Sequence record: SRR2962707_1682
Length of the DNA stretch: 45,040 nucleotides
Direction: 5' to 3' (one strand)
The notes under the pieces were generated by a model that was given only the letters and a program-made list of their open reading frames with translations, was not told where the DNA came from and ran no database searches. Made by a program: the position numbers and the translations under genes. Below are positions 18,419 to 29,486 of this stretch, in pieces; the stretch's first letter is position 1, and every line of letters starts with the position of its first letter.

Positions 18419-19061
18419 CGCTTTGATCCTGCGTAACATCCTGATTACCCGAAACGGCGCGCCCTTGGTCAGCATCGACCATTCGGTTGCGCCGGGTGAG
18501 GTGCTGACCGTGATGGGGCCATCAGGTGTGGGGAAATCCACGCTGCTGTCTTATGTCGTTGGCACCCTGTCAGCGGATTTCATAGCGCGGGGCACTGTTT
18601 GCCTGGGCACCACGGACATCACCCGCCTACCGCCAGAAAAAAGGCGTATCGGTATTCTTTTTCAGGATGATCTACTTTTCCCGCACCTGTCGGTCGGGGC
18701 GAACCTGGCCTTTGGCCTGCGTTACGGTGGTTCTGCGTCCCGTCGACGCGAACGGACCGCCGCGGCCCTGTCTGAGATTGGTCTGGAGGGATATGCCGAC
18801 CGTGACCCAGCAACACTGTCGGGGGGACAGAAGGCGCGGGTGGCGTTGATGCGTATGCTGCTGTCGGAGCCGCACGCGCTTTTGCTTGATGAGCCGTTCT
18901 CGGGCTTGGACGCGTCTTGGCGACGGCAGATACGGAAGCTGGTTTTTGACCGTGCGCGTCAGATGGACCTGCCGATTCTTATGGTCACTCACGACCAGGA
19001 AGATGCCGATGCCGCAGGCGGAGCAGTGGAAAGACTGACAGTTGCCAGCCCTTCCACATAA
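18411..19061 (+). CDS. ynjD: ABC transporter ATP-binding protein
   Basis: GPSGVGKS Walker A, LSGGQ signature, LLLDEPF Walker B. Confidence 0.9.
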   Translation: MADALILRNILITRNGAPLVSIDHSVAPGEVLTVMGPSGVGKSTLLSYVVGTLSADFIARGTVCLGTTDITRLPPEKRRIGILFQDDLLFPHLSVGANLAFGLRYGGSASRRRERTAAALSEIGLEGYADRDPATLSGGQKARVALMRMLLSEPHALLLDEPFSGLDASWRRQIRKLVFDRARQMDLPILMVTHDQEDADAAGGAVERLTVASPST

Positions 19062-19065
19062 TCAG

Positions 19066-20424
19066 TTAGCTGGCAGCGGCAATCGTCGTGCTGACAATGG
19101 TTGGCGTGATCTGGTTTAGTACACGATTCCAGCGAGTTATCGGCTGTTCAGCCACAAAAATCACGTCGTTGGGGCGCAATTCAAACCGCGTGGCGAGCAA
19201 TAGGTTCGCCGCATTGCTTGCGTCCAGCTGCCATGCCGTAAGCGCAGAGAATTCCCGCGGATCGGGCGAGCCGCGCAAAACATAGATTTTGCTCACATTG
19301 CCGGTGTTCGTGGGAATGCCACCCTGGCTGTAAATCGCATCGGCAAGAGAAGCGGTGTTTCCGAAGGGCAGTGGGAAACGGCTTTGCTTTTCGACTTCAC
19401 CAGCAAGATAGACATAATCCCTGCCAGTCGATTCCAGAGTGAGCTGGGCTTGGAAGTTTGCGCGGGTTTCGGCAAGCGCGCCGCGGCGGATCGATACTTC
19501 GGCGTTCAGCTCATTCAAGGCCGAAATGCGTGATTGCTGGCGAAAGTTCGCAATCTGGATTTGCTCGGCGAAATAGGCCTGCGCAAGGTCCAGCTCATAG
19601 GTGGTGTCGACAAAGACGCTGTCGCCATCGATCAGCGGAACGCGCTGCAGGCCGCGATTGGAATAAAGCTCGGTCAGGGGGATCTGATACAGGTTACCGT
19701 CGCGGTATATACGGACCGAGGCATAATCCTGGTCAGTCACCGTAATGCCGCCCGCAGCAGCCAGAGCTTCGTCAAGGTATAGCGGTGTCAGAGAGATTGG
19801 CGCCACGGTTGGATTGGCGACAGCACCGCCGATAGAAATCTTTTTGGAATTGAATTCGGCAATCTCAAGGCTGAATGTCGGGTCGATCTGGTTTTCAACC
19901 AGACGCTGGAAAAGTTCCGCTTCGGCGGCCTCTAGCGTCAATCCGGAAACCACGACCCTGCCAACATTCGGGATCGAGATCGATCCATCATCCTGCACGG
20001 TATAACCCTGCCTGGAATTGGACGCAGCAAGCAGCCCGGTCAGTTGCTCAACCGTCGAACCTGTTTTCGGTGTCGCCAAAAGGACAACATCGCCAATTCC
20101 GATCTGATATGGTCGTACAGGTGCAGTCGGGGGAAGGCGTGATTCCATCGAAATCGGTTTGACACGCTGATCCAGTACGGAATCAGGAACGGCGCCGGGA
20201 CCGCGTAGCCCGCTGCCCGTCCCGCCCGTTTGAAAGAATGCCGCTGGAAGCGTTTTCGGACTGTAAGTCGACCTGTTCGCCACAAGGGCTGATTCAGCCG
20301 TAATGGGCAGTACGCGGACTTTGGCATCAGCCTGGACAAAAGAATTTATCGAAGGCGATTTATACACCACGCCACATCCAGCAACCCCTGCCAGAAGCAG
20401 AGACATCAGCGCTTTTTTTATCAT
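19066..20424 (-). CDS. wza: Polysaccharide export outer-membrane lipoprotein (Wza/GfcE family)
   Basis: Lipobox VAGC; YQIGIGD, VQDDGSISIPNVG and FELRPNDVIFV...ITRWNRVLNQI motifs. Confidence 0.9.
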   Translation of the reverse strand: MIKKALMSLLLAGVAGCGVVYKSPSINSFVQADAKVRVLPITAESALVANRSTYSPKTLPAAFFQTGGTGSGLRGPGAVPDSVLDQRVKPISMESRLPPTAPVRPYQIGIGDVVLLATPKTGSTVEQLTGLLAASNSRQGYTVQDDGSISIPNVGRVVVSGLTLEAAEAELFQRLVENQIDPTFSLEIAEFNSKKISIGGAVANPTVAPISLTPLYLDEALAAAGGITVTDQDYASVRIYRDGNLYQIPLTELYSNRGLQRVPLIDGDSVFVDTTYELDLAQAYFAEQIQIANFRQQSRISALNELNAEVSIRRGALAETRANFQAQLTLESTGRDYVYLAGEVEKQSRFPLPFGNTASLADAIYSQGGIPTNTGNVSKIYVLRGSPDPREFSALTAWQLDASNAANLLLATRFELRPNDVIFVAEQPITRWNRVLNQITPTIVSTTIAAAS

Positions 20425-20499
20425 GATTTCCAGCGTCCCAAATTAATGTCTGCAAAGTGCGTATAACTAGGAAAAGCTCGGGGAGCCATCTTAGGCAAG

Positions 20500-20532
20500 A
20501 AAAAAAAGCGAACCCGATCAAAGGTTCGCTTT
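20500..20532 (-). terminator. Intrinsic terminator after YjbE-like copy 2
   Basis: AAAGCGAACC/GGTTCGCTTT stem followed by a T-run on the minus strand. Confidence 0.8.
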
Positions 20533-20561
20533 CATGTCACACCCTGCGATACAAGGTTCAG

Positions 20562-20816
20562 TTAGCGAGTGACTGAAGTCGCAGGAGTGCTGCTGCCGCC
20601 ATCAAGGCCACCAGCTGCTACGCCAGCAACGACAACAACTGCCGCTACGATAGCCACTGTGCTTCCCACGCCGAGGCCACCGAGGCCGATGGAGGTTGCG
20701 GCCTGTGTGGATACAACTCCATCAGCCTTCTGAACGGGAGTGATCTGTTGTGCATTCACAACGGAACCCGAAAGCAGCGCAACCGAAGCAATGATGCCGA
20801 AAAAACCAGTTTTCAT
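20562..20816 (-). CDS. Small secreted Gly/Ser/Thr-rich protein, YjbE/GfcA-like (copy 2, 84 aa)
   Basis: AGGAG RBS; signal peptide, hydrophobic segment and GGSSTPATSVTR tail; located between yjbF and wza. Confidence 0.75.
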   Translation of the reverse strand: MKTGFFGIIASVALLSGSVVNAQQITPVQKADGVVSTQAATSIGLGGLGVGSTVAIVAAVVVVAGVAAGGLDGGSSTPATSVTR

Positions 20817-20991
20817 TTCTTGTCTCCTGATAAAATTTTTAATGATCTTGCATCCCCAAGCTTGCCAGAACAATCCGGCCAAGAAAAGGGAATTCGGCAA
20901 AACATTAACATGTTTTACCGACTGTTACAATCGTGTCTGAATATCTGGGCACCGACAAGAAGTGCACAAATATTAATGTCTTTGAACAAAG

Positions 20992-21020
20992 AAAAAGCGA
21001 ACCCGATATGGGCTCGCTTT
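20992..21020 (-). terminator. Intrinsic terminator after YjbE-like copy 1
   Basis: AAAGCGAGCCC/GGGTTCGCTTT stem plus Ts; near-identical to the 20500-20532 hairpin. Confidence 0.75.
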
Positions 21021-21040
21021 AAGATCTCAGAAACCGTTTA

Positions 21041-21304
21041 TTAGCGAGTGAGTGCCGTTGTGGAAGTGCTGCTGCCGCCGCCACCGAATCCACCAGCTGC
21101 GGCCACGCCGCCAACGACAACAATCGTCCCGATAAGCGCCGCTGTACCGGCGGCGCCAAGGCCACCAAGGCCAAAGCCAATCCCAGCAGCCTGAGAGGAT
21201 ACAATGCCGTCATTCATTTGAAGCGGCGCGACCTGTTCTGCGCTCACAGCAGAACCTAGTAGCAGCGCGGCGGACGCAACGATGCCAATAAATGTAGTCT
21301 TCAT
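21041..21304 (-). CDS. Small secreted Gly/Ser/Thr-rich protein, YjbE/GfcA-like (copy 1, 87 aa)
   Basis: AGGAG RBS; MKTTFIGIVASAALL signal peptide; paralogous to 20562-20816; GGGGSSTSTTALTR tail. Confidence 0.75.
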   Translation of the reverse strand: MKTTFIGIVASAALLLGSAVSAEQVAPLQMNDGIVSSQAAGIGFGLGGLGAAGTAALIGTIVVVGGVAAAGGFGGGGSSTSTTALTR

Positions 21305-21430
21305 TCGTAGTCTCCTAGAGAAATCCATGATGTCCAAACATAGCCTATCTTCAAGAGGTTTCAAACGGAATTCCCCAAGAAAATCATGATATATTAGGGG
21401 GTTAGAGGGCATTTATCGTAGTTTTGTTAA

Positions 21431-22084
21431 CTAAATTTTTACTATTTCAATATCCGCATAGCCAACATAGTGGCCCACCCACTGATGCGATTTGCGTATT
21501 ACACCGTTACTATCCAGCCAATAACGATTCTGGAATCGCGTGTTGGGCCCGACGCAGTCCTCGGTCACTAACTCGGTGCTAAACCGCCCTCCAAGAGTGT
21601 CGACAGAAACGTTGCTTCTTCTTTCATAGGTGCAAACAAAGGCCATAGCCTCAAGGTGATCTTCACCGTTCAGGTAGCGGTGGATTCGTGTAGATGTTCT
21701 GGCTTCGCCACGTATGACAGCATTGATTTGCCCCAGATCCGTGGTCATCAGATCGCCGCCTAGCCCACGGGTTTCAGTGAGTAGGCCGGATTCCAGGGTC
21801 AAGGTGATTCCATCCTGGGTCCGCCAAATTTCACGTGCGCCAGTCCGTTGGGCCAATAGCACACCAGCCTGAACGCTGCGTTCGGGCAGCTCGACGAGTA
21901 ACACCGGCTGGTTCAGATTTTCCAGCGCCTCGGGCGTCAAGGTTTGACGTAGATCTACTTTTGCCGCGGGGGAAAACAGACCGTTAATGGCGTTCCGAAG
22001 CAAAGCAACCTGTTCCCCGTTCGAATTCGTACCGCAAGAGGCAAGCGCCATTGCGCAAATGAGGGCGATTGAAATATGTTTCAT
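21431..22084 (-). CDS. yjbF: YjbF/GfcB family lipoprotein
   Basis: Lipobox LASC; TRGLGGDL and FQNRYWLD...IRKSHQWVG motifs; start overlaps the yjbH stop. Confidence 0.85.
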   Translation of the reverse strand: MKHISIALICAMALASCGTNSNGEQVALLRNAINGLFSPAAKVDLRQTLTPEALENLNQPVLLVELPERSVQAGVLLAQRTGAREIWRTQDGITLTLESGLLTETRGLGGDLMTTDLGQINAVIRGEARTSTRIHRYLNGEDHLEAMAFVCTYERRSNVSVDTLGGRFSTELVTEDCVGPNTRFQNRYWLDSNGVIRKSHQWVGHYVGYADIEIVKI

Positions 22085-24213
22085 CTCCAGAACCTCCCCC
22101 ATTCCGATTGCAATTCAGGCTGGTGAAAGTCGCGAACGCTTTCGTATAGACGACCCTGGACATCCAGCTTCGCGCCGCCATCGCGCTGCACCAGCCGCAG
22201 TGTTCGGCCGATCCGCCGATTGGTCAGTATGCCGGTGATCGCGGACAATGGAATTTCGAATTCGATGCCCTTGTCAAAAGACCCTTCGCCAAAGTCGTCA
22301 AAGGATACATCCGTAAAGGTCGCAAAAGCCCCGATCCGGATACCGTTGTCAAATTCCCGACCAGCTGAAAGCGTTGTGCCCCAGTCACCGGCCAAATAAC
22401 GGCCTGCGTCCACTTGGTAGGTATAGCCACCTTCGGTTTCGTAGTATGTCGAAAGGTGACCTGTCATCACTTCATAGTCCTGAAATCCAAAACGCTGGTC
22501 AAAGTCACGTTGCTTGACATAGTTTGCCTCAATTCCGAACGCTAGGCGGCTAGTCACGGGTTTCCAGAGCAGTTCACCGGACAGTCCGCCGTACATTGAT
22601 TCAAGATAGCCGGCAGTCAAACGGCCATAGAGGTCTGTACCCGGGCGAAAATATTTTGCTGCTGTCAGGCTGGACAACGCTGTCTGGCCATCGCGCGCGT
22701 AAATCCCAAAATCCGAGCGGACATGGCGGATTTCCGAATTCGACTCCGCCAGATCGCTCTGATTACCGGTAAGTCGGTGGCGTAGGACACCTTGGAAGAC
22801 GACACCGGGCTGTGGTTCGTAACGCCCGGACAAAGCCACCCCGAGATCAAGCCGGATCGGCTGGTCCGGGTCAAAGTATGTTGCGGAAATATAGGGCCCG
22901 AAACCCCAGGTGAAATCTGGATATGCTAGGCGGGACGGGGCAACTCTGTCAGACGGATAGGCATCCGATATATCAGCACGGGCTAGCGTCTGCCACGCGC
23001 CGTCCGGTGCGTGGACCAGTTCCTCGATATCGCTGCGCTTTAGGGTGATCCGCGACAACGGTATTCCGTTGGCGTTGACCGGCGTCAGCACGAAAGTTTC
23101 GACAGATGCGGGCATCAATTGTGTAAGGATACGGGTTGCGCGACCAATTGCCTGTGCGGAATTGCGATAGTCTTCGTTGCGGAACCGTACCTGAACCGTT
23201 CGAGCATCGATAGCAAAGGCATCAAGCCGCAGGCCGCTTTGCCCGAAAACTTCCGAGACGTTGTTGCTCAGAATCTCGGACGCGTCGGCCTGTTGTGTCC
23301 AACCCAAGTCCTGGGCGGACCCTGTGGGCCGCATGGCCACCAGCGGCGGCGCGGGTTCGGTGCCACCCGGTCGGCTGTTCGGGTTCTTTGGGTCAAAGCT
23401 GTATGTCAGGCGTACCGCAGCTTCGGAGCCGTATAGATAGGCCGCGCTGAGATCCACACCATTTCTGAACCTGTAGCTGACCCCGACGTTAATCGGTGAT
23501 TCGATGTCTATAAGGCCGCGCGAAGTTTCTGCTTCGTACGCATCCGAGGAATATTCTGCCGTCAGGACAAGTTGATCGTTGACCTGATACTGGACACCAC
23601 CGAAGAGGGCGGCATCGCCGCGAAACCACTGACCGGTATCCAGCTGACCTGTGGTAGAATCCGTGGGCCGGGTGTCGAAGTCATCGCCCAAAAACCCAAG
23701 CGGATTGTCAAAGCCGTTGTAGCTGCCGAATCGACCCCACCCGATGCCACCGGTCGCGCGCAAACGCCCGAAAGTTTTGCTTGCGACGATGTATTCACCA
23801 GCGTAGATGCCGGTGCCACCAAAATCCTGAAGCCCAACGGTCACGGCAGGCATGCGTTCGGATTCGTGACTGATCAGATAGCGCAGGTCAAAGCTACGGT
23901 CATAATAGTCTTCCTGGACAGAACTGTAACCTTGGATTTTGCTGTACCGGAACACCCCCGATAAACGTGGCGTGATCTGGAAATAAGCGGAGTTGCGGAA
24001 GGTTCCGGAAAACATACCAAAGGTAAAGGAGATGTCGCCATCTGCCATGGGGTGTCCCCCCGGCATATCGATAAGCCCCGGCACGCCCATAAAGTTCAGT
24101 GTCGGACGGCTCCAGGGTTCATCCTGAGCGCGGCCAACACCGGGTGACCCAGTTGCCATGGCCAATGCGAGCCCCGCGTAGCCAACGCAATATTTCAGAG
24201 GAAGAATCTTCAT
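22081..24213 (-). CDS. yjbH: YjbH/GfcD family outer-membrane protein
   Basis: GVPGLIDMP, DRSFD, AGYLESMYGG, GRYLAGDWG and FGEGSFDKG motifs. Confidence 0.9.
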   Translation of the reverse strand: MKILPLKYCVGYAGLALAMATGSPGVGRAQDEPWSRPTLNFMGVPGLIDMPGGHPMADGDISFTFGMFSGTFRNSAYFQITPRLSGVFRYSKIQGYSSVQEDYYDRSFDLRYLISHESERMPAVTVGLQDFGGTGIYAGEYIVASKTFGRLRATGGIGWGRFGSYNGFDNPLGFLGDDFDTRPTDSTTGQLDTGQWFRGDAALFGGVQYQVNDQLVLTAEYSSDAYEAETSRGLIDIESPINVGVSYRFRNGVDLSAAYLYGSEAAVRLTYSFDPKNPNSRPGGTEPAPPLVAMRPTGSAQDLGWTQQADASEILSNNVSEVFGQSGLRLDAFAIDARTVQVRFRNEDYRNSAQAIGRATRILTQLMPASVETFVLTPVNANGIPLSRITLKRSDIEELVHAPDGAWQTLARADISDAYPSDRVAPSRLAYPDFTWGFGPYISATYFDPDQPIRLDLGVALSGRYEPQPGVVFQGVLRHRLTGNQSDLAESNSEIRHVRSDFGIYARDGQTALSSLTAAKYFRPGTDLYGRLTAGYLESMYGGLSGELLWKPVTSRLAFGIEANYVKQRDFDQRFGFQDYEVMTGHLSTYYETEGGYTYQVDAGRYLAGDWGTTLSAGREFDNGIRIGAFATFTDVSFDDFGEGSFDKGIEFEIPLSAITGILTNRRIGRTLRLVQRDGGAKLDVQGRLYESVRDFHQPELQSEWGRFWR

Positions 24214-24357
24214 GAGTACCTTTTTGCACGCGCGGTTTGGATATTTCGGACCCCGTTTGGGACTGCCGATTGGATGATAACTGTATGCACGTAAATTTCA
24301 CACCCGTGAGTCTAAAGACCACTTGGACGCAGAGAACAAAAAGCCTAATAGACCCGT

Positions 24358-25101
24358 ATGCGATTTTTTTTTCGGAAACGTGCCCCCAAGCCCACATTTG
24401 ATGCCCCGCTGATGCCGGAGTCACCGTTCTTTGCTGTTGGCGATGTTCATGGGCGGGTTGATTTGCTGCAGGACCTTCTGCGACGCCTGCATGAAACTGA
24501 ACATCCAGCGGCAAAGCTAATATTGGTCGGAGACTACGTCGACCGCGGCGATCATAGCCGGGAGGTCCTGGATTTGCTTCAGTCCCTACAGGCCGACCAT
24601 CCCGATGACCTCATCTGCCTGATGGGGAATCATGAACGTATGCTTCTGGAATTCCTGGATGATCCTGAAAAACGCGGTCCGCGCTGGCTTAGGAATGGCG
24701 GATTGCAGACATTGGCAAGCTACCGCATCGCGGCGGTGACGCAAAATAGCAGTCCGGAAGTCTGGAAGGCGACCCGAGACAATTTCCGCGCCGCACTTGG
24801 TCAGGGCGAAGAATGGCTGCGGGGTTTGCCGTTGATCTGGCGCACGGGGAACATTGCAGTCGTGCACGCCGGGGCGGATCCTGCGCGCCCGATCACTGAT
24901 CAGGACGACGCAACTTTGCTTTGGGGGCATCGGGATTTTGCCACAACGCCCCGAAATGACGGCATCTGGGTCGTTCACGGTCACACGATCGTTGATTTTC
25001 CCGAATCGATTGAGGGCAGGATCCCTCTTGATACTGGCGCCTACGGGACAGGGCGGCTGACCGCTGCCTTGATCGAAAAGGGGTCGGTCAGGTTTTTCTG
25101 A
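24358..25101 (+). CDS. Metallophosphoesterase (PPP-type Ser/Thr phosphatase family)
   Basis: GDVHG, GDYVDRG, GNHE, HAG, HGHT and DTGA motifs. Confidence 0.9.
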   Translation: MRFFFRKRAPKPTFDAPLMPESPFFAVGDVHGRVDLLQDLLRRLHETEHPAAKLILVGDYVDRGDHSREVLDLLQSLQADHPDDLICLMGNHERMLLEFLDDPEKRGPRWLRNGGLQTLASYRIAAVTQNSSPEVWKATRDNFRAALGQGEEWLRGLPLIWRTGNIAVVHAGADPARPITDQDDATLLWGHRDFATTPRNDGIWVVHGHTIVDFPESIEGRIPLDTGAYGTGRLTAALIEKGSVRFF

Positions 25102-25149
25102 CCGACCCCTTCAGGCACCTGTGGGCTGCTCTATTTAAGAAGCAGCCCA
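25078..25149. terminator. Two hairpins between convergent genes (probable bidirectional termination)
   Basis: 14-bp perfect IR 25078-25091/25098-25111 spanning the phosphatase stop codon, and a 9-bp IR 25122-25130/25141-25149. Confidence 0.6.
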
Positions 25150-25160
25150 AATTTTTTGAT

Positions 25161-25865
25161 TTACTTGCCGGTCCTGTTCACGACGGAATTTGCGGTCGCG
25201 CAGATGATTTTGATGTCGGTGACCAATGAGATGGATGAGACGTATTCAACGTCCATATTGACCCGCTCATCATAGCTCACATCGTTACGCCCAGAAACTT
25301 GCCAAAGACCGGTGATACCTGGCGACATCGAGACGTAGATCCCTTTGTATGGGCCGTATTTCTTTAGCTCTTCTCTGACGATGGGACGGGGTCCAACAAA
25401 GCTCATCTCGCCCTTTACCACGTTCCAGATCTGGGGAAGCTCGTCGAGGCTGCTTTTGCGAAGGAATCGTCCCAGCGGGGTGATACGCGGATCATCTGTC
25501 AGCTTGTGGTCTTGGGCCCATTCGGCGGCGGCCTCGGGATTGTCTGACAGGTGTTTGCGCAGCTTGCGTTCGGCATCGAACACCATCGAGCGTACTTTCC
25601 AGCACGGAAATACCTTGCCGTTACGGCCGACGCGGCGATGGGCAAAAAAACCCGGGCCTCCGTCACGGCGTACAAGCAGCCAGAGCACAAAAAGCACCGG
25701 GGCAATGACAGGCAACAGCACGATGGCGAGAGTCACATCGAAAATGCGCTTGCCGCGGCGCGAGTAAATATTTTGGGCCGGTTCACCGGTTGTTTGGCCA
25801 CTTTCTGCAACCGGTACGTGAATGCCGTCGATCCAGTTGCTAGCGTAAGACTGCTTCGTGCTCAT
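25161..25865 (-). CDS. Priming phosphoglycosyl transferase (bacterial sugar transferase, ExoY/WbaP C-domain type)
   Basis: KRIFDV, DDPRITPLGRFLRKSSLDELPQIWNV, MSFVGPRP and PGITGLWQVSGR motifs. Confidence 0.92.
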   Translation of the reverse strand: MSTKQSYASNWIDGIHVPVAESGQTTGEPAQNIYSRRGKRIFDVTLAIVLLPVIAPVLFVLWLLVRRDGGPGFFAHRRVGRNGKVFPCWKVRSMVFDAERKLRKHLSDNPEAAAEWAQDHKLTDDPRITPLGRFLRKSSLDELPQIWNVVKGEMSFVGPRPIVREELKKYGPYKGIYVSMSPGITGLWQVSGRNDVSYDERVNMDVEYVSSISLVTDIKIICATANSVVNRTGK

Positions 25866-26056
25866 GTCGGAAACTCCAACTTCGGATAATCTAGGAATGC
25901 ATTGCGGGTTTGCGTCATTTGGGTTCTTCCAGTCAGCTAAACGCCGTCTGTGAGGGCAAATTTACTGGGAAAAATTTATACTACGGGCGCTTCGAAACTA
26001 ACTCTTAAGGATGTTGTGTAGCCAACATGAATCCGGATGTGAAGACTGACGAGAGT

Positions 26057-26083
26057 TTAATAAATAGTTAACAAGTGTTTAAC
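26057..26083. promoter_or_regulatory. Tandem overlapping CtrA boxes TTAA-N7-TTAA-N7-TTAAC
   Basis: TTAA at 26057, 26068 and 26079, in the AT-rich region upstream of the sugar transferase. Confidence 0.65.
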
Positions 26084-26522
26084 AATTGTGCATGTTAGCC
26101 ATTTTTTGCACCATTTTTCCATCAAACTTTAGACGCGGTTTCTAACGGTAGTATTAACCTTCTGATAAGGAATGTTAAAATTTGGCACCACTGATGACGT
26201 TCATCCGCAGTCGTGGGACAGGTAAACAACCTAAAGAAAGTTCGATTACTTTCCCTGACGTTCGTTTTTTGAGCACTTGAAGCCCTCTTTGCGCCACCTG
26301 AGCAAAGATTGCGCCTACCAAGCAGTTTGCTCCTGCAGGATGAATCGCGCACTGATCGCGATCTTCCGACCCGTTTGAACGTGGAAAAGCGCTTCGAACG
26401 GATTGAAACGCCCGCAAACATCACGAAATTTCCAGTGATTCTCTGGTAGCAATAGGGTGTGAAGGCGAATAGACGTCCGTAAGCCGCGCAAGAAGCGCGG
26501 CCGCGGTGTCTGATAGGGAAAA

Positions 26523-26598
26523 TGGGGCGACTGACGGGTTTCGAACCCGCGACCACTCGGACCACAACCGAGAGCTCTACCACTGAGCTACAGTCGCC
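26523..26598 (-). tRNA. tRNA-His (GUG) with encoded G-1, C73 discriminator and CCA
   Basis: Cloverleaf: G GCGACTG TA GCTC AGTGGTA GAGC T CTCGG TTGTGGT CCGAG TGGTC GCGGG TTCGAAA CCCGT CAGTCGC C CCA. Confidence 0.97.
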
Positions 26599-26609
26599 GC
26601 AGTGGCTCG

Positions 26610-26638
26610 GATTTAGCGAATGCTTTGCGGCTTGTCCA
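26610..26638 (-). promoter_or_regulatory. Putative sigma70 promoter of tRNA-His
   Basis: TGGACA-N17-TAAATC ending 11 nt upstream of G-1. Confidence 0.55.
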
Positions 26639-26773
26639 TAGCCTTTTGGCTTATTTTCGTAGCATAATCGAATGAAAAATTCGGCTCAAACGCATTCGGT
26701 ATCAATAGCTTACGATAAAGCGTGTCCGGCCCTGAAATAACACAGCGAAACCAATGATCGTTGGTCTATGTCC

Positions 26774-28099
26774 TCAGACGGTGCGCGCGGCGGCAAACTC
26801 AGCTACCGTAATGTCCTGCTGGGCGCCCGTTGTCATGTTCTTGAGCTGGTGCTTTCCCTCACGGACGATCCACACATAGGGAATGGCTTTATCGTTGGCG
26901 TACTTCAGCTGTTTGTCTAGGCGCGGCACGTCCGGGAGGATTTCGGCATTCGTACCCGTTGCGCGGATTTGCGCGGCCAGCGCTGCGATCTCGGCTTCGG
27001 ACAGCGACGCGTCGCTTACCACCAACACGTCGGTTGGGGTACTACGGCCCGGTTCAAGAAGGCCCTCAGTCAGCAGCTTCGTAAAGATCCGGGTTAGGCC
27101 AATGGAAATGCCGACGCCAGGCAGCTTTCGCTTCATGAATTGCCCGACAAGGTTTTCGTAGCGCCCGCCTGCGCAGATCGACGGGTACCCGGGAAAATCG
27201 ATGAACCGCGCCTCGTAAACCACGCCAGTGTAATAGTCGAAGCCGCGCGAAATCGCGAGATCGCCGTCAATGATGAACCCGGCGGGGCGGCTTTTTTCAA
27301 CCTTGGTGAGCAGTGTGCACAGAGCATCGCGGCCGGCGTCGATGTCGGGGTTCGACAGGCCAAGCGCATTGATCCCATCTGCAATCGCGTCGGGTCCACC
27401 TTTAATCTGGCAAAAGCGCACGCAGGTGTCGATGCCGTCGATATCAAGACCCAACTCTGTAGACAGGCGTTCGGACAGCTGTTCGGTGCTCAGCTTGTCG
27501 ACCTTGTCGAGAATCCGTGCCAACAGTGTGCCATCCGATAGGCCAATGTGGGTGGCAAGGCCGTCCATGATCCGACGGTTAGACACCTGGAACTTGACCG
27601 GCCCGACGTTCAGCCGTGTGAGCGCCACCACAGCCATCTCAAGCATTTCAGCATCATAAGAGAGCGAGACGGTGTCCTGGTCGATTACATCGATGTCGCA
27701 TTGGGTGAATTCGCGATACCGTCCTTCTTGCGGGCGTTCGCCACGCCAGCAGCGCTGCATCTGGTAGCGCTTAAACGGAAACGCAAGGTTGCCGTGTTGC
27801 TTGGCCACATAACGTGCGGTCGGGACGGTCAGGTCATAATGCAGCGCCAGCTTTGCACTGGTCGTTTCGCCGACTGCGGCAAGCCGGGTCAGGGCATAGA
27901 TTTCCTTGTCCACATCTTCGCCTTTGGCGGCGAGCGTCTGGACCGTTTCAACCGAAGGCGTTTCGATATTCGCGTAGCCGTAGCTTTCAAAGACCTGGGC
28001 GAGCGTGGCCAGCCACCGCCGCTCCACATCCCGCACACCGGGAGTGAATTCGGGAAATCCGCTTATCGCGAAATTGAGCTTGGTCTTGGCGCCTGCCAT
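26774..28099 (-). CDS. hisS: Histidine--tRNA ligase (RPQ-loop type, not the usual Rhodobacterales type)
   Basis: ISGFPEF, YDLTVP, motif 2 WRGERPQEGRYREFTQCDID, RGFDYYTG, AGGRYENL, GVGISIGLTR and a C-terminal anticodon-binding domain. Confidence 0.95.
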   Translation of the reverse strand: MAGAKTKLNFAISGFPEFTPGVRDVERRWLATLAQVFESYGYANIETPSVETVQTLAAKGEDVDKEIYALTRLAAVGETTSAKLALHYDLTVPTARYVAKQHGNLAFPFKRYQMQRCWRGERPQEGRYREFTQCDIDVIDQDTVSLSYDAEMLEMAVVALTRLNVGPVKFQVSNRRIMDGLATHIGLSDGTLLARILDKVDKLSTEQLSERLSTELGLDIDGIDTCVRFCQIKGGPDAIADGINALGLSNPDIDAGRDALCTLLTKVEKSRPAGFIIDGDLAISRGFDYYTGVVYEARFIDFPGYPSICAGGRYENLVGQFMKRKLPGVGISIGLTRIFTKLLTEGLLEPGRSTPTDVLVVSDASLSEAEIAALAAQIRATGTNAEILPDVPRLDKQLKYANDKAIPYVWIVREGKHQLKNMTTGAQQDITVAEFAAARTV

Positions 28100-28460
28100 C
28101 GTGTTGTGCCCTTCGATCCATCGCCGTGCGGGGCCTTTGCCGGACCCGGTGACCCGGCTTTTTGACAGGGCGGGTTTACGGGCAATCCCTTTGAACCACA
28201 ACTACAAATGCTTGGGCCGGTGTGGTGGCGCGGTCCCCTGTCGGTGACCGAGGAGGGGCGAATTCAGCAAGTCCCCGGTCATCCAGCACTTTCAGAACCG
28301 TGGGAAATCTTAGGGGATTCTTAAGTCCTCGACAGATAGAACTGTAACAAACCGTCGGTTTGCCCAAGTTTGAATGCCCCTTTTTACCGACCGACCCGTT
28401 TTTGCTTGCTATGCAACGCGGTTCGCGTATCCGAATGTGGGAAACAATACGAAGCAGGCC

Positions 28461-29486
28461 ATGATAAATCACACCATTGACGACTCGACCCGCGCACCAA
28501 GCGACTGGGTGCGCATTCTTGCCCGGTACCGCGAACCGGATGCCCTGCGCAGCAGCTTTGAACTGGCGGTCAGTCTGGTCCCATTTGTTGCGCTGTGGGT
28601 TCTGGCGTGTTGGGTCGCAAATTTCAGCTATATTGGCGCACTGCTGATTTCAGCACTGAACGGATGTTTCCTGCTGCGTCTGTTCTGCATCCAACACGAT
28701 TGCGGACATGGATCGTTTTTCGGCAACCGAACGCTTAGCGACTGGGTCGGTCGCGGACTTGGGATTGTCACGCTGACGCCTTATGACGTCTGGCGGCGGA
28801 CGCATTCGATCCATCATAGCCATGCCGGGGATCTGGATCACCGGGGTATTGGTGATGTGATGACCCTCACGATCAAGGAATACCACCAACGCACGGCCTT
28901 TGGCCGATGGCTGTATCGCGCATACCGGCATCCGCTCGTGATGTTCGGGCTGGGGCCAACATATCTGTTCTTTCTTCAGAACCGGCTGCCGCTGGGGTTA
29001 ATGACGCAGGGGCGGAAATACTGGGTGTCGGCAATGGGCACCAACGTTGGGATTGCCTGTGTCGTCGCTGTGATCATCTGGTTTGGCGGCTTGCAGGCGC
29101 TATTCCTCGTGTTCCTGCCGACCACACTTATCGCGGCTTCCGTTGGGGTTTGGCTGTTCTATGTCCAGCACCAGTTCGAAACGACACACTGGGAACAGGC
29201 CCCCGACTGGCAGCTACATGAGGCGGCCTTGCACGGCAGTTCCCATTATGACCTTCCGCCAATTCTGGCATGGTTCACGGCGAATATCGGTATTCACCAT
29301 GTCCACCACCTTTATAGCCGGATCCCGTTTTATCGCCTGTCCGAAGTGCTGCGCGATCACAGTGAACTGGTGGAATGCAGCCGCATGACACTGCTGCAAA
29401 GCTTTAGATGCGCAAGTCTGGATCTGTGGGACGAAAAGAGCCGTAGACTTGTGTCCTTCGCCACGGCGCACAAGCTGGCCGTCTGA
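28461..29486 (+). CDS. Membrane fatty acid desaturase (Des-like)
   Basis: Three His boxes HDCGH, HSIHH and HHVHH, plus FYVQHQFE. Confidence 0.92.
   Translation: MINHTIDDSTRAPSDWVRILARYREPDALRSSFELAVSLVPFVALWVLACWVANFSYIGALLISALNGCFLLRLFCIQHDCGHGSFFGNRTLSDWVGRGLGIVTLTPYDVWRRTHSIHHSHAGDLDHRGIGDVMTLTIKEYHQRTAFGRWLYRAYRHPLVMFGLGPTYLFFLQNRLPLGLMTQGRKYWVSAMGTNVGIACVVAVIIWFGGLQALFLVFLPTTLIAASVGVWLFYVQHQFETTHWEQAPDWQLHEAALHGSSHYDLPPILAWFTANIGIHHVHHLYSRIPFYRLSEVLRDHSELVECSRMTLLQSFRCASLDLWDEKSRRLVSFATAHKLAV

Follow-up and report, generated by a model that had tools for sequence, protein, structure and literature searches.

The hisS-tRNA-His cassette

The stretch of DNA analyzed here, 45,040 nucleotides of sequence record SRR2962707_1682 and hereafter called the window, carries on its minus strand a gene for histidyl-tRNA synthetase (hisS; HisRS) followed by a gene for histidine tRNA (tRNA-His). 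Both are of the canonical type, in which a guanosine at position -1 (G-1) is encoded opposite the discriminator base C73. Rhodobacterales, Rhizobiales, Caulobacterales and their relatives have lost G-1, a much-studied case in which synthetase and tRNA co-evolved away from a near-universal identity rule, and a canonical pair, which we refer to as the cassette, very probably entered this clade from outside. The parts of the locus are the following.

26774..28099, minus strand: hisS, canonical (G-1-type) class IIa HisRS of 441 amino acids (TIGR00442, Pfam, phylogeny)
27719..27748, minus strand: codons of the motif-2 loop WRGERPQEGR, residues 118-127 (HisRS alignment)
26599..26773, minus strand: spacer of 175 nt from the hisS stop to G-1 (sequence read)
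26610..26640, minus strand: promoter-like block, TATGGACA, 15 nt (in the window), GCTAAATC (conservation in cassette loci)
26598..26598, minus strand: encoded G-1 (sequence read; invariant across 10 aligned cassette tRNAs)
26526..26597, minus strand: tRNA-His(GUG), positions 1-73, with the discriminator C73 at 26526 (ARAGORN, Rfam RF00005)
26523..26525, minus strand: encoded 3' CCA (sequence read; invariant in the alignment)

The protein begins MAGAKTK at an ATG start. Its TIGR00442 score is 318.6 bits, where the cut-off is 286.75, and the match extends over model positions 3-405 of 406. With the HisZ model it reaches 145.5 bits, short of the 271.65 required, which identifies the gene as hisS and not hisZ. 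PF13393 (tRNA-synt_His) matches residues 17-338 with 114 bits, and PF03129 (HGTP_anticodon) matches residues 367-437 with 21.1 bits, barely above the cut-off of 21. The N-terminus reads ...FAISGFPEF and the loop stretch of motif 2 (residues 118-131) reads WRGERPQEGRYREF. This hisS is not located upstream of hisZ-hisG; it sits between a fatty-acid desaturase gene and tRNA-His.

The sole tRNA found by ARAGORN in the window is tRNA-His(gtg) at 26597..26523 on the minus strand, and the Rfam RF00005 match at 26526-26597 has 66 bits against a gathering score of 29. Its acceptor stem is GCGACTG/CAGTCGC, with G1:C72, and G-1 can pair with C73 to give an acceptor stem of 8 bp. Ten aligned cassette tRNAs (8 distinct) showed 100% pairing over 176 pair cells, with compensatory changes in five pairs, and the -1:73 pair was G-C in all eight distinct sequences. 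Because of this full pairing and the compensatory changes, the cassette tRNA-His looks like a genuine gene under selection. An initial annotation of the window had read here hisS and tRNA-His(GUG) on the same strand 175 nt apart, an encoded G-1 at 26598 opposite C73 at 26526, a WRGERPQEGR loop and an N-terminal ISGFPEF. ARAGORN and a direct reading of the sequence agree with it on the tRNA, as do the translation and the HisRS alignment on the enzyme.

Host organism and the native histidine system

When one genome per species was scanned, the HisRS loci nearest to that of the window were those of Puniceibacterium sediminis (91% identity), P. confluentis (89%), P. antarcticum (87%) and two related metagenome-assembled genomes (MAGs; 87%). 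Next were Sulfitobacter brevis and a MAG (72-73%), Phaeobacter sp. CECT 5382 (69%) and a Hyphomonadaceae MAG (57%), and farther away were Magnetovibrio/Rhodospirillaceae (about 50%) and many Micavibrio-like and unclassified alphaproteobacteria (40-44%). Flanking proteins of the window and of P. sediminis share 74-93% identity and the same gene order. Given these closest HisRS loci and the conserved flanking synteny, we assign the host, a marine bacterium, to Puniceibacterium (Rhodobacterales). This places it within a clade described as lacking G-1 in the excerpts consulted of PMC3937112 and PMC3064791, as the initial annotation had supposed.

The native system of this clade has a different appearance. 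Native tRNA-His genes, of which that of a typical family genome was located with a covariance model built from cassette tRNAs, have T at -1, G1:U72 and A73 in 6/6, with CCA present. Native Rhodobacteraceae HisRS is about 490 amino acids long and 30-33% identical to the window enzyme in tblastn, and its motif-2 loop is WRNEKPGPGRYRQF (WRNEKPGPGR) in 6/6. All of the cassette and canonical relatives aligned have GERPQxGR where the six native enzymes have NEKPGPGR. The gene order hisS -> hisZ(-hisG) was present in 29 of 29 native loci, often with dnaE and a small lipoprotein-like gene upstream. The altered loop, the hisZ neighbor and the A73 tRNA without G-1, which the initial annotation had given as the native type, thus describe these genomes correctly. 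Excerpts of PMC3937112 define the RRCH clade, to which these G-1-less alphaproteobacteria belong, report a Gln-to-Gly change in the HisRS loop and treat the RRCH tRNA-His/HisRS change as having a single origin. On their argument, foreign identity rules can only rarely be transferred horizontally, and a synthetase that is imported would be expected to adapt to the tRNAs of its host.

Probable foreign origin of the synthetase

Two trees of 66 and 57 rows were computed by IQ-TREE quick search under LG+C20; for speed they omitted two partial sequences and the majority of the 29 native ones. The cassette HisRS clade had 100% support and the native Rhodobacteraceae clade 99-100%, and the two are joined via branches of 4.4 and 2.0 substitutions per site. 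The window HisRS therefore stands apart from the vertically inherited Rhodobacteraceae enzymes, both clades being strongly supported. Its clade is placed among enzymes of Rhodospirillaceae/Magnetovibrio, Actinomycetota, Algicola/Pseudoalteromonas and one Bordetella enzyme, which in the free tree nests within the cassette clade.

The initial annotation had likened the enzyme to an actinobacterial type. This stands insofar as HisRS from Frankia and other Actinomycetota belongs to the same subfamily, with 48-50% identity to the window enzyme, but enzymes of Magnetovibrio/Rhodospirillaceae and some gamma- and betaproteobacteria are equally close. Holding the 13 RRCH rows together was not rejected by the approximately unbiased (AU) test (p 0.119; the group was named after seeing the tree), a result compatible with a single origin of the RRCH cassettes as well as with several. 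Among solved structures, the nearest chains by sequence are 3net_A and 6nhi_A, then human cytoplasmic HisRS; at E <= 1e-20 there were 9 distinct chain sequences, none of them labeled with E. coli or Thermus as source.

HisRS of the same subfamily (46-49% identity) was also seen in Bordetella genomosp. 9, Pseudoalteromonas maricaloris and an Algicola MAG (P0030, P0094; L015). Since ordinary gamma- or betaproteobacterial HisRS is expected in those hosts, these enzymes may be second, transferred copies.

Linkage of hisS and tRNA-His

Within the HisRS clade of the window, a tRNA-His gene lies within about 70-400 bp of hisS in 18/18 loci, in tandem, divergent or convergent arrangement. The linked tRNA has G-1, C73 and CCA in the window, in 9/9 genome loci, in 5/5 Hyphobacterium-like loci and in 3/3 metagenome loci; the ten aligned tandem cassettes all keep these three features. 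In the five Hyphobacterium-like genomes tRNA-His is about 160 bp upstream of hisS in divergent orientation.

A metagenome scan gave 73 loci, of which 32, namely all full-length matches of at least 40% identity, were scanned for tRNAs; the remainder were partial, or about 30% identical and archaeal-like. In the three linked metagenome loci, at 56-57% identity, the tRNA follows hisS after about 70 bp, in tandem in one and convergently in two. The tandem locus appears to come from the lineage of the Hyphomonadaceae MAG, and the convergent pair adjoins a prolyl oligopeptidase gene whose best named relatives are from Phenylobacterium and Caulobacter (66-72%).

In more distant relatives, no tRNA-His was found by hisS in the flanks examined of 48 non-RRCH genome loci and 29 metagenome loci. 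The survey of hisS-tRNA-His synteny proposed by the initial annotation hence separates 18 linked loci out of 18 from 0/77. Linkage is confined to this HisRS clade, and every host that could be identified belongs to the RRCH group; no linked tRNA was sought beside the Bordetella gene of the clade. In three Magnetovibrio/Rhodospirillales-type genomes and in one of Algicola, tRNA-His is unlinked, in the latter on another contig. The acceptor stem of these unlinked tRNAs is GTGGCTG/CAGCCAC, and that of all cassette tRNAs is GCG.../...CGC, i.e. C2:G71.

Up to its last ~60 nt, the spacer between hisS and tRNA-His varies from one Puniceibacterium species to another. These ~60 nt 5' of the tRNA are kept in the window and in 8/8 Rhodobacterales cassette loci, across three genomic contexts, with the layout TATGGACA, spacer, then GCTAAATC or GCTAGAC, the last of these stopping about 10 nt short of G-1. 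We read this block as a putative promoter of the tRNA that moves with the cassette and presume a likeness to the Caulobacter-type -35/-10 consensus. A simple scan of 26300-28450 for sigma-70 promoters and terminators flagged nothing, the conserved block included, and an Rfam scan of 25800-28500 gave no family besides tRNA. About 20 nt past the CCA, at 26483-26501 on the minus strand, a perfect 7-bp hairpin was spotted by eye (GCCGCGC, loop TTCTT, GCGCGGC), followed only by TT. This hairpin gave no hit in the terminator scan and shows no conservation across other Puniceibacterium species.

Patchy distribution

Genus, family and order samples follow the grouping of the search tool itself. In the family of P. 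sediminis, the cassette type was present in 1 of 401 genomes, P. sediminis itself; other best matches had at most 37% identity and six genomes gave no match. The genus Puniceibacterium has the cassette in 5/8 genomes and the native type only in the other three. The genus of S. brevis has it in 2/61 (55 native only; 4 without a match at the threshold), and the genus of Phaeobacter sp. CECT 5382 in 1/15 (14 native only). Carriers are thus scattered even inside genera. The order of the Hyphomonadaceae MAG has the cassette in 6/401, the rest being without a match at E <= 1e-80; five of these six carriers have HisRS 48-50% identical to that of the window, clustering with proteins named Hyphobacterium.

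Loss of the native pair in carrier genomes

All 14 carrier genomes of G-1-less orders had exactly one HisRS above the TIGR00442 cut-off; as a control for this search, the Caulobacter enzyme was detected in the control set. The next TIGR00442 matches in the nine tandem-type carriers were HisZ or reading frames of ~660-690 amino acids, and the only further match in the five Hyphobacterium-like carriers was a reading frame of 657 amino acids. Rhodobacterales carriers give a HisZ-like match with the hisS model, unlike the five Hyphobacterium-like genomes (G794, G414, G614, G714, G454; L229-L233), in which none was seen at E <= 1e-10. Histidine biosynthesis in the Hyphobacterium-like organisms may do without HisZ.

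The native tRNA-His was sought by a covariance model and, with positive controls, by BLAST with the native gene. These replaced a sequence pattern (TTGTGRN{12,17}GGTTCRA) which was dropped after finding the native tRNA-His in 0/5 control genomes. Used as BLAST query, native tRNA-His had no full-length match in any of the 14 carriers, the best matches in the five carriers checked being tRNA-Ala and tRNA-Lys. In non-carriers the same query found a full-length match of 87-100% identity in 12/13; the one genome missed may be incomplete. The covariance model gave 100-107 bits for the cassette tRNA in five carriers, and the next hits, at most 71 bits, were tRNAs for Thr, Asp, Asn, Gly, Val and Pro. 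One non-carrier of a Caulobacterales-type order (G411; L338, L341) has, beside its full-length copy, a second, partial match to native tRNA-His (81%, positions 5-77), which may be a second or decayed tRNA-His gene.

The sites where the native genes would be expected are empty. In 8/8 carrier loci hisZ has no preceding hisS; in seven of these it follows dnaE and/or the lipoprotein gene, and in the eighth other DNA. Sensitive tblastn upstream of hisZ in carriers revealed no relic of native hisS, only the expected paralogous likeness of hisZ. In two native-type congeners, tRNA-His lies between genes for a GNAT acetyltransferase and a pseudouridine synthase, with a gap of 334 bp in the one measured. 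The same gap is 172 bp in four of the five Puniceibacterium carriers and contains no tRNA or tRNA fragment; in the fifth the GNAT gene is outside the stretch examined. Covariation within Puniceibacterium is perfect, with five species having the cassette only and three having native HisRS and native tRNA only.

Since native HisRS and tRNA are absent from the carriers and the native sites are empty, the cassette in these genomes is a displacement and not a coexisting second system. The initial annotation had left open whether the pair is a second, orthogonal system or a displacement, and the 14 carriers point to the latter. Neither the second hisS beside hisZ/hisG nor the A73 tRNA-His that it proposed to look for was found in them. 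Its suggestion that enzyme and matching tRNA were acquired together is supported by phylogeny, linkage and the absence of the native genes. For the window's own organism, we infer displacement from its congeners.

Proposed scenario and alternative explanations

Taken together, we consider it very probable that a linked canonical HisRS and G-1:C73 tRNA cassette was horizontally acquired and replaced the native pair in the Puniceibacterium lineage of the window. In the proposed scenario, a cassette of HisRS, promoter-like element and G-1:C73 tRNA would enter G-1-less alphaproteobacteria by horizontal transfer and at first work beside the native pair. The cassette HisRS presumably needs G-1:C73, and the two systems would be mutually orthogonal. 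The redundancy would be harmless because the systems would not cross-charge and both would insert histidine at CAY codons. Native hisS and native tRNA-His would then be deleted, and the lineage would return to the universal G-1:C73 histidine identity rule. RNase P would be expected to leave G-1 on the mature tRNA, since it is paired with C73. Excerpts of PMC3064791 report that the C. crescentus and E. coli HisRS/tRNA-His pairs are mutually orthogonal in vitro and that the E. coli tRNA is not charged by C. crescentus HisRS. According to excerpts of PMC3875453, E. coli tRNA-His is matured in C. crescentus and charged only with E. coli HisRS. As either foreign gene alone would be useless in a G-1-less host, only linked pairs would establish themselves, which would explain the adjacency of enzyme and tRNA genes in every G-1-less carrier.

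A broader reading, which to us could equally well prove right or wrong, is that a portable identity-rule cassette has spread repeatedly in G-1-less alphaproteobacteria, each time ousting the resident orthogonal pair. Selection would maintain its linkage, since neither gene of an orthogonal pair would be of use by itself. The carriers concerned are a Puniceibacterium subclade, Sulfitobacter brevis, a Phaeobacter-like strain, the Hyphomonadaceae MAG, Hyphobacterium and a Caulobacteraceae-like soil organism.

Several observations weigh against replacement by a transferred cassette. The intermediate that the scenario calls for, a carrier of both systems, was not found. MAGs, which may be incomplete, make up four of the nine tandem-type carrier genomes. 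The window covers 45 kb, and a native pair could in principle lie elsewhere in its organism. In the four contexts compared, the cassette has neither an integrase nor a transposase gene beside it, and no direct repeats flank it. A plasmid search gave no close copy (best match 47% identity, an actinomycete record), and a viral contig search gave no cassette copy. Native-type congeners have no shared synteny around the desaturase gene that would mark the boundaries of an insertion. The GC content of hisS (0.587, with 0.583 for the window) is host-like. Joins among subclades have 85-93% support in the SH-like approximate likelihood ratio test (SH-aLRT), in quick trees only, and do not single out a donor. 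Some flanks scanned for a linked tRNA-His are short, and the loci behind the 18-versus-77 contrast are not independent, reflecting perhaps one or few origins. Retention of G-1 during maturation and the charging specificity of the cassette pair are predictions.

It is very unlikely that the cassette works in the window's organism as a second orthogonal system beside a native hisS-hisZ-hisG cluster and A73 tRNA-His. The 45 kb covered by the window leave room for such a cluster, the orthogonality of the two system types makes this feasible (excerpts of PMC3064791 and PMC3875453), and the displacement scenario itself needs such a stage. Native HisRS and tRNA-His were nevertheless found in 0/14 carriers, including five Puniceibacterium with a window-like cassette context, and the native sites are empty in the congeners. 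We think it very unlikely that the tRNA is restored in gene sequence only, the mature molecule losing G-1 and the imported HisRS using other identity elements, so that the universal rule would not be re-established. Most Thermus contacts to G-1:C73 are non-specific in the excerpts of PMC4357726, which would permit such an adapted hybrid. G-1, C73 and CCA are, though, invariant in 18/18 cassette tRNAs in which other stems vary with compensation, the ERPQxGR loop is the same as in G-1-using relatives, and the C. crescentus experiment cited above (PMC3875453, excerpts) points the other way.

Hundreds of independent losses (1/401 in the family, 2/61, 1/15, and 6/401 in the other order) would be needed if the canonical pair were ancestral, kept since before the RRCH radiation and lost nearly everywhere else. 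Branching in the cassette clade does roughly track taxonomy, with the Hyphomonadaceae MAG outside Rhodobacterales; the composition is wholly host-like, and inter-genus identities of 69-73% are within the range for old genes. The unrelated genomic contexts of the cassette in different genera and the nested Bordetella enzyme speak against such a vertical relic, as does the deletion of native hisS inside dnaE-(lipoprotein)-hisZ-hisG synteny, which indicates that carriers once had the native gene. We consider this explanation highly improbable. The chance that cassette contigs are contamination or mis-binned DNA of a G-1-using organism appears negligible. Four of the nine tandem-type carriers are indeed MAGs, but five carriers are genomes of isolates, in which contigs of 66-560 kb bear the cassette. 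In addition, the genes around the cassette in the window and in L001 share 74-93% identity between Puniceibacterium species, and the carriers are without any other HisRS, which is indispensable to a cell. Replacement of the native pair by the cassette hence remains our preferred explanation.

Genomic neighborhood

Neighbors of the cassette are ordinary genes that differ by genus across the four contexts compared. In the window they encode a fatty-acid desaturase, an NtrC-like regulator and kinase, a sugar transferase, a phosphoesterase and a YjbH-family protein. The other contexts contain a response regulator and solute-binding protein, an ABC ATPase with DUF1203/dnaE, and a LytTR two-component system with copper-resistance genes. 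Desaturase orthologues in three native-type congeners are 58-65% identical, with no other window neighbor shared and no tRNA nearby. One of these orthologues (L248, G094:C13:553123-554202) has one in-frame TAG and may be a pseudogene or contain a sequencing error.

At 19000-26000 the GC content of the window is 0.52-0.56, against about 0.60, and the genes are of exopolysaccharide type (YjbH family, sugar transferase, phosphoesterase). A closely related MAG (L002) is without the YjbH and sugar-transferase genes, and its cassette is joined to other window genes. This region looks like a variable polysaccharide island beside the cassette and unrelated to it.

Implications and comparison with known systems

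The opposite of what PMC3937112 would lead one to expect, judging from its excerpts, appears to have happened here. Enzyme and tRNA seem to have been imported together and the resident pair discarded, in more than one lineage or on more than one occasion. If repeated spread is true, tRNA identity rules are horizontally transferable and reversible, and the tRNA-His/HisRS change regarded as a single-origin RRCH synapomorphy is reversible too, with sister species representing a natural swap experiment. The type strains of P. sediminis, P. confluentis and P. antarcticum could be compared with native-type congeners for tolerance to a change of identity set. The findings also call for caution in using tRNA-His traits as phylogenetic markers, and they offer a concrete case for why synthetase and tRNA genes are sometimes linked.

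Among the papers listed by our full-text literature search, none gives an account of a canonical pair or a reversion within the RRCH clade, an early mention in Wang 2007 or Ardell & Andersson 2006 not being excluded. Nor does any of those listed name Puniceibacterium or Hyphobacterium in connection with HisRS.

Compared with the canonical system of E. coli and Thermus thermophilus, the window pair shares an encoded G-1 opposite C73, a GUG anticodon, an encoded CCA and a full-length class IIa enzyme. In Thermus, Glu114, Arg115, Gln117, Lys118, Arg120 and Arg122 of motif 2 contact the acceptor end and the G-1 phosphate (excerpts of PMC4357726). By motif pattern, not by computed alignment, the window loop ERPQxGRYR fits Glu114, Arg115, Gln117, Arg120 and Arg122 of that description (PMC4357726, excerpts). 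The window HisRS differs in belonging by sequence to another HisRS subfamily and in the physical linkage of hisS to its tRNA, which was seen in 0/77 loci of non-RRCH relatives. With the native RRCH pair of the Caulobacter crescentus type it shares the host clade, the job and the CAY codons (excerpts of PMC3064791 and PMC3937112). The A73, missing G-1, G1:U72, ~490-amino-acid NEKPGPGR enzyme and hisS-hisZ-hisG order of that pair are all lacking in the window pair.

An analogous case is the engineered orthogonal HisRS pair in Caulobacter, of which the window pair would be a natural counterpart. In the partial accounts consulted, this too is a canonical G-1-type pair placed in a G-1-less alphaproteobacterium, with both components needed. 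It resides on a plasmid, reads UAG and works alongside the native pair, whereas the window pair is natural and chromosomal, has kept its GUG anticodon and appears to have taken over all histidine decoding.

Horizontally transferred synthetases with a dedicated tRNA in a neighboring gene, each useless alone, are known from pylS-pylT. Cassettes of that type add a new amino acid or codon meaning, while the window cassette exchanges the rule by which the tRNA of an existing amino acid is recognized and takes the place of the resident pair. The components described here are of known kinds; their natural linkage, their spread in G-1-less lineages and the replacement of a resident identity set appear to be new.

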